DNA of 64,000 nt from Eledone cirrhosa (taxonomy: Eukaryota): positions 212,226,001 to 212,290,000 of the forward strand of contig OZ024740.1 of assembly GCA_964016885.1 (NCBI GenBank), given 5' to 3'. Below, one piece after another: positions 16,145 to 32,648 of this stretch. The notes below the pieces were generated by a model that saw only the letters and a program-made list of their open reading frames with translations, was not told the DNA's origin and made no database searches. The stretch's first letter is position 1. Every line of letters starts with the position of its first letter. The position numbers and the translations under genes are program-made.

Positions 16145-17827
16145 TTTGGATTTAATGCTCTGAAATAGCGATATATATGTGAAGACAAACATAGAATATT
16201 CGAAAATATTCTGTATGTTTATAATAAACATTTTGAAGACCCAATCGCTATAGAATAGAATACGTCACGTATTACAATTTGAGATTCTCGATAAAAGCAA
16301 GGGAAGTAACCTACGCGTTTCATTCTTATTAGAAATCATCAGGATTACATATCCAATGCTTTTATCGAGAATGACACAGCTAGAGACTTATAGAATACTT
16401 AGCTGTGTACAGGAACTGGTTTGAAAGAGCGGTAGCTGGTCCGGCAGAAAATAGAATTTGGATTTAATGCTCTGAAATAGCGATATATATGTGAAGACAA
16501 ACATAGAATATTCGAAAATATTCTGTATGTTTATAATAAACATTTTGAAGACCCAATCGCTATAGAATAGAATACGTCACGTATTACAATTTGAGATTCT
16601 CGATAAAAGCAAGGGAAGTAACCTACGCGTTTCATTCTTATTAGAAATCATCAGGATTACATATCCAATGCTTTTATCGAGAATGACACATCTAGAGACT
16701 TATAGAATACTTAGCTGTGTACAGGAACTGGTTTGAAAGAGCGGTAGCCGGTCCGGCAGAAATTAGAATTTGGATTTAATGCTCTGAAATAGCGATATAT
16801 ATGTGAAGACAAACATAGAATATTCGAAAATATTCTGTATGTTTATAATAAACATTTTGAAGACCCAATCGCTATAGAATAGAATACGTCTTCACATATA
16901 TATCGCTATTTCAGAGCATTAAATCCAAATTCTAATTTCTGCCGAACCGGCTACCGCTCTTTCAAACCAGTTCCTGTACACAGCTAAGTATTCTATAAGT
17001 CTCTAGCTGTGTCATTCTCGATAAAAGCATTGGATATGTAATCCTGATGATTTCTAATAAGAATGAAACGCGTAGGTTACTTCCCTTGCTTTTATCGAGA
17101 ATCTCAAATTGTAATACGTGACGTATTCTATTCTAGAGCGATTGGGTCTTCAAAATGTTTATTATAAACATACAGAATATTTTCGAATATTCTATGTTTG
17201 TCTTCACATATATATCGCTATTTCAGAGCATTAAATCCAAATTCTAATTTCTGCCGGACCTGCTACCGCTCTTTCAAACCAGTTCCTGTACACAGCTAAG
17301 TATTCTATAAGTCTCTAGCTGTGTCATTCTCGATAAAAGCATTGGATATGTAATCCTGATGATTTCTAATAAGAATGAAACGCGTAGGTTACTTCCCTTG
17401 CTTTTATCGAGAATCTCAAATTGTAATACGTGACGTATTCTATTCTATAGCGATTGGGTCTTCAAAATGTTTATTATAAACATACAGAATATTTTCGAAT
17501 ATTCTATGTTTGTCTTCACATATATATCGCTATTTCAGAGCATTAAATCCAAATTCTAATTTCTGCCGGACCAGCTACCGCTCTTTCAAACCAGTTCCTG
17601 TACACAGCTAAGTATTCTATAAGTCTCTAGCTGTGTCATTCTCGATAAAAGCATTGGATATGTAATCCTGATGATTTCTAATAAGAATGAAACGCGTAGG
17701 TTACTTCCCTTGCTTTTATCGAGAATCTCAAATTGTAATACGTGACGTATTCTATTCTATAGCGATTGGGTCTTCAAAATGTTTATTATAAACATACAGA
17801 ATATTTTCGAATATTCTATGTTTGTCT
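16145..17827. repeat. Array A: 312-bp HHR-containing tandem repeat, head-to-head inverted (about 2.4 units minus, 3 units plus; junction about 16888-16890)
   Basis: CTGATGA cores at 17044, 17356 and 17668 give a period of 312. Minus-strand HHRs at 16306-16348 and 16618-16660. GTC microhomology at the inversion. (TA)n on both sides. Confidence 0.95.
17038..17080 (+). ncRNA. Type I hammerhead, family A (also 17350-17392 and 17662-17704 plus; 16306-16348 and 16618-16660 minus)
   Basis: GTAATC-CTGATGA-tTTCtaataaGAAt-GAAA-CGCG-TA-GGTTAC. Stem III is the palindrome ACGCGT with a GUA triplet. Stem I is extended by the 16-bp helix ATTCTCGATAAAAGCA/TGCTTTTATCGAGAAT. Confidence 0.9.
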
Positions 17828-18940
17828 ATACATATATATATATATAAACAAGTAAAATATAAAATATACATCGATATACATACATATACATATATATATA
17901 TATATATATATATATATACATATATATACATACATATACATACACATATACATAAACACATACATACACATACATATACATACACACACCATATAAATAC
18001 ACATACACATACACACACGCATACATATAGAGACACATACATATACACATATAAATACATAGACATATACACATATATATATAAACATACACACATACAT
18101 ATATATATACATTCACAACACACATATATATATATATATATATATATACACATATCTACACACATATATAAACACACTCATGTATATACACACATACACA
18201 TACATACCCACACATATATATATATATATACATATACACATATATATATATATATATACATATATATATATATATATATATACACACATACATACACACA
18301 TATACACATACACATATACAAAGATATATATACATACACACACACATATAATAAATATATATATATATATATATATATATATATATATATATATATATAT
18401 ATACACACACATATATATACATACATACACACACATACATACTCATACATAGACATACATATATACTCACATACATACACACATACATATACGCATATAT
18501 ACACATACATACACATCCATGTATGCGTATATACATACAAACACCACCACACGCTCACACAACTCAGACATACATAAATAAAGGGATATACATACACATA
18601 TATACATATATAAATAGAGATACATATACACATATAAATATATACACACGTACACACACACACACACATACATACACATACATATACACACGCTCACACA
18701 ACTCAGACATACATAAATAAAGGGATATACATACACATATATACATATATAAATAGAGATACATATACACATATAAATATATACACACGTACACACACAC
18801 ACACACATACATACACATACATACACACATACATATATATACACACATATATATATATATATATATATATATATATATATATATATATATATATATATAT
18901 ATATATATATACATATATATATATATACATATATATATAT

Positions 18941-31800: not shown

Positions 31801-32648
31801 GGCATAAATTCAGGCTGTTCAGTTTGTTTACAAACGAACAAAGCGGCGTTATAATAAGGCGTCCGCTAAACTGATGCGTGCATATATGTATGTGTACCTG
31901 TATGTATATGTATGTATATATGTATGTGTGTATATATATATATGTATATATATATATATATATATATATATGTATATATATGTATATATATATATATATG
32001 CATGCTACTGTACGTCTGTATACATATATGTATGTACGTATACATACATACTTACATTTAAGTAAGTGCCATACTAAGAGTGAGAAATGAAATTTCGTTT
32101 TCATTTTTTTGAACTTATCGTTTTCGGTATGCCTGACCGATTTAACTCACTCAATATGCAAATTAGGCTGCTCAGCCGTTAATTTTCATAAGGAAAGTAT
32201 ATACTTTCGAACGTTCAACTATCTGGCAGATGGGTATACGGTGCTGATGATAGCTAACAAGCTTGAAACTAGTACATCGTTCCTGTGTCAGTGTTGAACA
32301 AAAAGGTGACGTGGTTGCCTTAACACCGTATGGCATAAATTCAGGCTGTTCAGTTTGTTTACAAACGAACAAAGCGGCGTTATAATAAGGCGTCCGCTAA
32401 ACTGATGCGTGCATATATGTATGTGTACCTGTATGTATATGTATGTATATATGTATGTGTGTATATATATATATGTATATATATATATATATATATATAT
32501 ATGTATATATATGTATATATATATATATATGCATGCTACTGTACGTCTGTATACATATATGTATGTACGTATACATACATACTTACATTTAAGTAAGTGC
32601 CATACTAAGAGTGAGAAATGAAATTTCGTTTTCATTTTTTTGAACTTA
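28826..32648. repeat. Array C: 531-bp HHR-containing tandem repeat, head-to-head inverted (about 2.8 units minus, 4.4 units plus; junction 30307/30308)
   Basis: Identical ORF-track entries recur every 531 bp (one 534-bp unit). HHRs at 29106, 29637 and 30168 (minus) and 30642, 31176, 31707 and 32238 (plus). Flanked by (TA)n. Confidence 0.95.
30642..30684 (+). ncRNA. Type I hammerhead, family C (7 copies in the array)
   Basis: ACGGTG-CTGATGA-tAGCtaacaaGCTt-GAAA-CTAG-TA-CATCGT. Stem III is the palindrome ACTAGT with a GUA triplet. The extended helix is closed by GTTCAAC/GTTGAAC. Confidence 0.9.

Follow-up and report, generated by a model that had tools for sequence, protein, structure and literature searches.

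Penelope-like elements (PLEs) and retrozymes are the closest described counterparts of the locus reported here, which comprises three hammerhead-bearing repeat arrays (A, B, and C) within 64,000 nt of Eledone cirrhosa DNA (GCA_964016885.1, OZ024740.1:212,226,001-212,290,000; this whole stretch is called the window, and all positions refer to it). In the accessible portions of three studies (PMC8557442, PMC3846280, PMC8969392), PLE insertions are characterized as targeting microsatellites and as carrying inverted 5′ copies and a one-sided tail of 30-40 bp, and in the first of them the Hydra clade is described with a DKT motif, a CxCx5C linker, CxxC and CxH motifs in the endonuclease, a canonical hammerhead, and (TA)n targets. 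In a 2024 study, the PLE protein PAc cut AT-rich DNA and extended both strands in vitro, and two internal reverse transcriptase (RT) starts downstream of the hammerhead were found to define the genomic tail, on linear RNA and without need of ribozyme cleavage (PMC11167929). Whereas a first-pass annotation of the window by a model had taken it as established that a PLE RT initiates via microhomology to cleaved DNA, the PAc starts, obtained on linear RNA, were reported as not homologous to the cut DNA (PMC11167929).

Metazoan retrozymes without long terminal repeats (non-LTR) are described, in the accessible text of PMC7229834, as tandem units of a few hundred nucleotides with low GC content and one type I hammerhead per unit; they have no notable coding frame, carry target duplications of more than 4 bp, and occur in genomes with PLEs (PMC7229834, 10.64898/2026.07.22.740005, accessible text of both). 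According to the accessible part of a 2020 review, retrozyme repeats show no conserved motif pointing to a partner (PMC7761336), and a PLE origin of animal retrozymes has been argued from co-occurrence and likeness to pseudo-LTRs (pLTRs), with the mechanism left open (10.64898/2026.07.22.740005, accessible text). The main texts of PMC7229834 and 10.64898/2026.07.22.740005, in their accessible parts and supplements aside, make no mention of arms joined head-to-head, of tails, or of 3′ ends at fixed positions. For retrozyme arrays, these features were likewise not found in the mostly open-access part of the literature, supplements aside, and the accessible part of PMC9977147 adds nothing on ends. 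The end pattern of arrays A, B, and C is the known PLE tail in a new setting, and this footprint ties retrozymes to the PLE machinery. Arrays that carry the whole PLE footprint provide direct genomic evidence on which retrotransposon moves animal retrozymes.

Layout and ribozymes of the three arrays

The window consists of animal-type DNA rich in (AT)n tracts and retroelement debris. The arrays lie between 16145 and 32649, all inserted in (AT)n tracts, and each is made of two arms of head-to-tail repeats joined head-to-head, with the 3′ ends pointing outward. Array A (312-nt unit) has a left arm of 2.4 units on the minus strand (16145..16890) and a right arm of 3.0 units on the plus strand (16888..17827). 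The corresponding arms hold 0.85 unit (27055..27324, minus) and 1.9 units (27325..27928, plus) in array B (317-nt unit), and 2.8 units (28826..30307, minus) and 4.4 units (30308..32649, plus) in array C (531-nt unit). At the inversion centre the arms overlap by 3 nt in A and by 0 nt in B and C. As in PLE insertions, an inverted 5′-truncated copy is joined head-to-head in all three arrays. In monomer coordinates, which count nucleotides past the hammerhead cut, the six 5′ starts fall at 46, 126, 179, 202, 398, and 161, none of them at the cut.

Our own motif finder recovered type I hammerheads in the units, with passing cores in 5/5 copies of A, 2/3 of B, and 6/7 of C; the failing cores are altered in stem I or stem III. 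In A and C alike, the hammerhead contains CUGAUGA and a palindromic stem III, stem II has a U-U pair at its base, and cleavage follows GUA. One of the five copies in A (17350..17392, plus strand) has a 6-bp stem I, CUGAUGA, GAAA, and the palindromic stem III and is cut at 17386, and the last copy in C (32238..32280, plus) is cut at 32274. The B hammerhead (27703..27780, plus) has a U3-A8 core variant and is cut after GUC at 27757. This natural variant, with a 4-bp stem III, is found in the B cores at 27186-27221, 27405-27440, and 27722-27757. Rfam reported no hammerhead in the arrays at gathering score; B matched Hammerhead_HH9 with an E-value of 0.00022 and 31 bits, under the gathering score of 52, among the 150 of 329 matches listed in an E-value scan dominated by microsatellite-miRNA matches.

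The units are AT-rich (65-67%; GC 33-35%). Array A contains no open reading frame of 100 aa, and the frames of 108-129 aa over B and C cross microsatellite; the arrays themselves encode neither an RT nor a GIY-YIG endonuclease, as an autonomous PLE would. Judged from these sequence features, namely tandem units within the class range of about 150-1000 nt, each with a type I hammerhead, low GC content, no coding content, and target duplications of more than 4 bp, A, B, and C fit the class of non-LTR retrozyme arrays, and PLE remains are also present in the genome. They differ from the described retrozymes in the long C unit with a microsatellite inside it and in the U3-A8 core of B. The C microsatellite (monomer 131-313) folds as a long hairpin and is carried in every unit at a length nearly constant between copies, the exceptions being one unit with 28 nt lost and one with 2 nt gained.

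Two end sites downstream of the ribozyme

The six terminal sequences quoted by the first-pass annotation were all located, at or beside the positions given for them (offsets of 1-12 nt), and they represent three insertion events with two arms each. In monomer coordinates, A ends at 167 (16145) and 129 (17827), B at 131-141 (27055-27045) and 171 (27928), and C at 312-314 (left, 28826) and 372-375 (right, 32649). As had been claimed, every end lies more than 100 nt downstream of the ribozyme cut (129-171 nt in A and B, 312-375 nt in C). The match of the A right arm extends to monomer 141 with two mismatches; since the paralogous flank carries the same letters, the 12 letters after A monomer 129 are target DNA.

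A single window of about 60 nt had been proposed for these ends. They do span only 43 nt in A and B together and 58-63 nt in C, but they resolve into two discrete sites, with one arm at each site in all three arrays. Site 1, used by the right arm of A and the left arms of B and C, precedes GCYAT, the 3′ strand of a predicted helix, by 2-14 nt. Site 2, used by the left arm of A and the right arms of B and C, lies 26-63 nt further on and, counted at the outer limit of each match, 6-11 nt before TGCC(T/G)GACC in all three families. The interval between the sites forms a one-sided tail like the 30-40 bp tail of PLEs. It measures 26-38 nt in A (monomer 130-167, 16145..16182, minus strand, left arm only), 30-40 nt in B (27889-27928), and 58-63 nt in C (32589-32649).

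The landmarks occupy identical positions in A and B (61, 143, and 178), although the two units are only about 72% alike in this region, and the second ends of A and B fall at the same place within 4 aligned letters; in C the landmarks are at 56, 325, and 387. In one A unit, the enclosing helix (17447..17533, plus strand) would pair ATAGC at 17447-51 with GCTAT at 17529-33 around enclosed hairpins, and TGCC(T/G)GACC occupies 17564..17572 (plus). The predicted pair probability of the closing helix is 0.84 in A, 0.83 in B, and 1.0 in C for monomers, and 0.53 for C in a dimer; one A-U pair of A and B is replaced by G-C in C. Both C ends fall in predicted hairpin loops (probability of being unpaired, 0.89 and 0.91).

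The shared domain proposed at first pass is clear between A and B, for which the local score reaches 124 against 26 ± 5 in shuffled sequences (0/500 shuffles reach it), but the homology of C is weak. In the folding model, C is linked to the domain mainly through the predicted closing helix at the corresponding place (56/325 versus 61/143). If the ends are treated as independent, the two-site pattern of B and C has P = 7e-6 when positions are uniform, and P does not exceed 1.4e-5 in any of 12 settings with AT-content or microhomology weights. For B alone, P ranges from 0.004 for uniform positions to about 0.05 when AT content is weighted most strongly, and for the single window of the first pass it is at most 1e-3. 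These values flatter the pattern, because the windows were chosen post hoc, the two ends of each array are coupled, and the link of C to the domain is weak. Termini spread uniformly or set by AT content alone fit poorly. The ends had also been assigned to an AU-rich window; between 9 and 59% of monomer positions are as AT-rich as the ends, which are therefore not especially AT-rich, and this description is beside the point.

Relatives of A were sought in public reads and contigs, with 4 of 24 runs aligned to one A unit (X1 and X2 are one sample; X22 is a restriction-site-associated DNA [RAD] run). The A relative in these runs differs at about 16 majority positions. Its best-supported loose 3′ contig end lies at 17527 (monomer 141), followed by (AT)n, in 7 contigs of X1 and 9 of X2, and the same monomer-141 end is marked by 274 reads in X22, the sole pile not on AATT among the 6 piles listed. 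No read pile occurs at the ribozyme cut, which about 1,770 reads span; together with the end positions in the window, this ruled out ends at the cut. Mapping the termini of other copies, the check suggested at first pass, showed for one A relative that site 1 recurs and that no read pile falls at the cut; site 2 received no support outside the window among the contig rows listed.

Several read features were set aside. The X22 piles at 17416-17419, 17552, and 17558 all fall on AATT (monomer 33, 165-166, and 172) and were rejected as array ends in favour of restriction ends and chimeras; because site 2 coincides with AATT in this run, the 1,686-read pile at 17552 is a library artefact. A strand-switch joint from 17514 to 17595 (98 reads, one start) was excluded from the end counts, and contig depth was disregarded as a measure of copy number. 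Pattern scans for relatives returned 0 matches in metagenome contigs and 0 in viral contigs, and the 50 matches in prokaryote genomes, none with more than 33 aligned letters, were attributed to chance. In run X4 (record 17), from a second organism, the A family collapses into a single looping contig of 340 letters, and another family in the same organism has only the hammerhead core (17659-17692) in common with A.

Priming, template, and candidate enzyme

Target-site duplications accompany A and B. In array A, 14 nt at 16127..16140 (plus strand), followed by four extra T, recur at 17828..17841 (plus), where letters 3-12 match monomer 132-141; the letters also recur in the paralogous flank beside C. 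The duplication of B is 12 nt long (27043..27054 and 27929-27940, plus), and that of C is unreadable within pure (AT)n. The match between target and unit at site 1 is 10 nt in A, 10 nt in B, and 2 nt in C, and at site 2 it is 1, 0, and 3 nt, respectively; the site 1 match of A has two mismatches at the very primer end. The internal microsatellite of C offers 38 positions with a target match of at least 8 nt, none of which is used by either end. Homology to the target is facultative for the starts. An earlier preprint of the PAc study may have mentioned microhomology.

We consider it probable that the arrays were inserted by a Penelope-like RT-endonuclease, likely of Hydra type, at two starts set by the protein, with primer pairing as an optional fine-tuner. 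The endonuclease would cut (AT)n on both strands 12-14 nt apart, as the target duplications show, and both 3′ ends would prime cDNA, which would account for head-to-head arms with their 3′ ends outward. The protein may bind the structured domain downstream of the hammerhead and start at the two internal sites where the ends are observed, just 5′ of GCYAT and, 26-63 nt further, just 5′ of TGCC(T/G)GACC. Each arm would use one start site, leaving the PLE tail. At the AU run of site 1 in A and B, the primer could pair over 10 nt and set the register, with 0-3 nt of pairing elsewhere. Synthesis would continue past the ribozyme cut, with an uncleaved multimer or a circle as template, and stop at scattered places, and the two cDNAs would then be joined.

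Twin priming by LINE-1 (long interspersed nuclear element 1) resembles the arrays in that cDNA is primed from both nicked strands of the target, which leaves an inversion. In twin priming, however, the first primer acts at the poly(A) end and the second at an arbitrary internal place, whereas both starts of the arrays are internal and fixed and both arms end in the same domain. PAc, which belongs to a Poseidon-clade PLE of Anolis, shares with the arrays an AT-rich target, extension of both strands, and a tail defined by two starts, none of them at the cut (PMC11167929). PAc differs in being autonomous, with starts in its open reading frame and in an AC-rich stem-loop, and its first start lies 85-92 nt past the cut (PMC11167929), compared with 129-375 nt for the starts of the arrays, which are non-coding repeats and, in two families, match the target over 10 nt at one site.

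An explanation by pairing alone, in which a nicked (AT)n primer anneals at any AU run and site 2 and the C ends are scatter around AU-rich sequence, appears unlikely to us. It accommodates the 10-nt matches at site 1 of A and B, which lie inside the target duplication, yet four of the six ends match the target over only 0-3 nt and both C ends avoid the long (AT)n tract of their own unit. The AU run as the dominant end in reads, the absence of site 2 support among the listed contig rows, and the weak landmarks of C are also as it predicts; it does not account for the agreement of the second ends of A and B within 4 aligned letters, nor does any AT or microhomology weighting lift the pattern of B and C above 1.4e-5 (with windows drawn post hoc).

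Several observations weigh against insertion by a PLE enzyme at starts set by the protein. The suggestion of the first-pass annotation that the domain positions the RT start agrees with ends that keep away from the cut and occupy fixed positions in a structured domain, but in A and B site 1 coincides with a 10-nt target match and with the only (AT)n run of the unit. Because site 1 of A is this AU run, the read data confirm non-uniform ends and cannot separate position from pairing. Site 2 is represented by no contig row among those listed (94 further rows lie outside the listing, and rare junctions tend to be lost from contigs), and its position in X22 is masked by AATT. The A and B ends are not strikingly unpaired (probability 0.51-0.61, with 26-40% of positions equally open). 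The C tail (58-63 nt) exceeds the described 30-40 bp. C segments score against the domain no better than shuffles do, 216-489 of 500 of which reach the same score, and the 9-letter match of C at the expected spacing is reached in 9% of 2000 shuffles. Only three insertion events are available. Finally, the A/B/C domain was not found in the PLE ends of the window among the best 15 matches, which comprise only a 28-nt hammerhead match of A to a neighbouring element (D) and microsatellite matches, so that the ends provide no direct sequence link to the partner.

The candidate partner family is represented in the window by three truncated fragments, which probably belong to the Hydra clade as judged from their motifs. 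The longest is a Penelope-like RT-endonuclease frame of 541 aa (24805..26430, minus strand) with DKT, YRDD, CxCx5C, and GIY-YIG-type motifs. The other two carry CxCx5C, CxxC, and CxH (10636..11322, minus, with a downstream hammerhead cut at 9221; 36732..37685, plus, with a downstream hammerhead cut at 38724). Pfam returned 0 families for the three fragments, and a PDB sequence search likewise gave no recognition. Hydra-clade PLEs, in the accessible text of PMC8557442, resemble the window in their (TA)n targets, canonical hammerheads, DKT, and CxCx5C, and resemble the arrays, as PLEs generally do, in the inverted 5′ copy and one-sided tail; the window differs in containing only truncated fragments, with the clade called from motifs and no sequence found that would link the A/B/C domain to the fragment ends. 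Eight further hammerhead-bearing ends in the window stop 5, 5, 21, 34, 45, 70, 89, and 207 nt past the cut. At the 3′ end of the longest fragment (24342-24540, minus), the middle of the hammerhead seems to be missing (CTGA runs straight into AA), and TGAGTACCT is common to this end and the long end of element D.

Regarding the template, arms of up to 4.4 units cross up to four cut sites, which excludes the cleaved linear monomer. Such read-through is equally compatible with a circle and with an uncleaved linear multimer. The first-pass annotation had regarded a circular template as required. However, since the internal starts of PAc were seen on linear RNA (PMC11167929), starting internally does not argue for a circle, which is possible but not required. 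Units within each insertion are nearly identical (99% alike); those of C differ by 2 substitutions and 3 small indels across 3.8 kb. Of the 9 differences at positions that both arms cover in the same register, 8 are private to one arm; these private differences are predicted by a circle or by a young uniform multimer alike. Monomer 187 is A in the first full unit of both arms of array A, where the family has G (1045/1051 and 811/818 reads). This shared letter points to a linear multimer or conversion, although, being a CpG transition, it could have arisen twice.

Within the PLE reading, a strictly circular monomer template with both arms as rolling-circle products is possible, although we lean against it. 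Retrozyme RNA circles and multimeric cDNA made from them are the published model (PMC7229834, PMC7761336, accessible text), and near-identical units with private differences suit it. A young uniform linear multimer predicts equal uniformity, internal starts occur in vitro on linear RNA without a need for ribozyme cleavage (PMC11167929), and the letter shared at 187 is impossible from one circle unless the CpG transition occurred twice. In-place growth, proposed for vertebrate retrozymes (10.64898/2026.07.22.740005, accessible text), would have expanded short PLE-terminal insertions into satellites by unequal exchange, in which case the ends date from the original insertion and the unit number is no record of the template. 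We regard it as improbable: 99% likeness among units is what it predicts, but several units stand in both arms of A and C, the target duplication of A is intact, and the 5′ starts are separate. Moreover, the first insert must still exceed one unit, which requires read-through of the cut.

A bolder geometry, which we consider doubtful, would have a dimeric Hydra-clade enzyme clamp one circular retrozyme RNA at the conserved domain, with both 3′ overhangs of the staggered cut in (AT)n starting two cDNAs at fixed sites 30-60 nt apart and rolling-circle synthesis yielding head-to-head multimers. If true, this single arrangement would account for the inverted copy and the one-sided tail seen in every PLE insertion, the motif through which retrozymes recruit the enzyme would be identified, and a circular RNA of an animal would serve directly as template for target-primed integration. 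The arrays define a 120-nt domain and two start sites as a substrate for the existing in vitro PLE assay, with the AU run, the ATAGC/GCTAT helix, and TGCCTGACC as candidate start-setting elements.

Neighbouring elements in the window

The arrays are accompanied by other hammerhead-bearing repeats in inverted pairs. Flank element F has a left copy at 15254..16076 (minus strand) and an inverted twin at 32672-33498, with 815/819 aligned letters identical. Its type I hammerhead (33288-33441, plus; twin at about 15311-15465, minus) has a stem II of about 120 nt (fold z = -5.1) and a GUU cut, and the head-to-head copies end 70 and 207 nt past it. Arrays A and C, which are different families, stand in one and the same (AT)n tract of the two inverted, 99.5% identical F copies (15254-17886, 28687-33498); the tract is a strong hot spot, or else the assembler joined two haplotypes. 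On the latter ground, the array ends themselves might be assembly or rearrangement artefacts at microsatellite borders. We consider this very improbable, given that independent contigs and raw reads show the site 1 junction to (AT)n again, that the target duplications are exact, and that the flank copies have different 3′ ends.

Element D (21348-22172, minus; 27929-28666, plus) also consists of head-to-head copies, with 731/751 aligned letters identical, and its pair is nested within the F pair like inverted shells. Its hammerhead is close to that of A (28-nt match, 89%), and the copies end 89 and 21 nt past the cut. Element E (14858-15082, plus; 34600-35795) ends only 5 nt past its hammerhead cut and forms a head-to-head pair of its own at 34733-35795, broken at 35796 by a LINE piece.

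Further repeats include two head-to-head tandem arrays (45866-46489 and 47119-47768) with a 48-nt unit in about 13 copies each, related to a LINE-associated repeat, in which a motif scan found no hammerhead. The stretch at 53801-54840 is a minisatellite of 42 nt that also shows higher-order periods of 82 and 124. A tRNA-like head at 541-598 (Rfam, 29.4 bits) probably belongs to a short interspersed nuclear element, with related pieces near 34267 and 52653.

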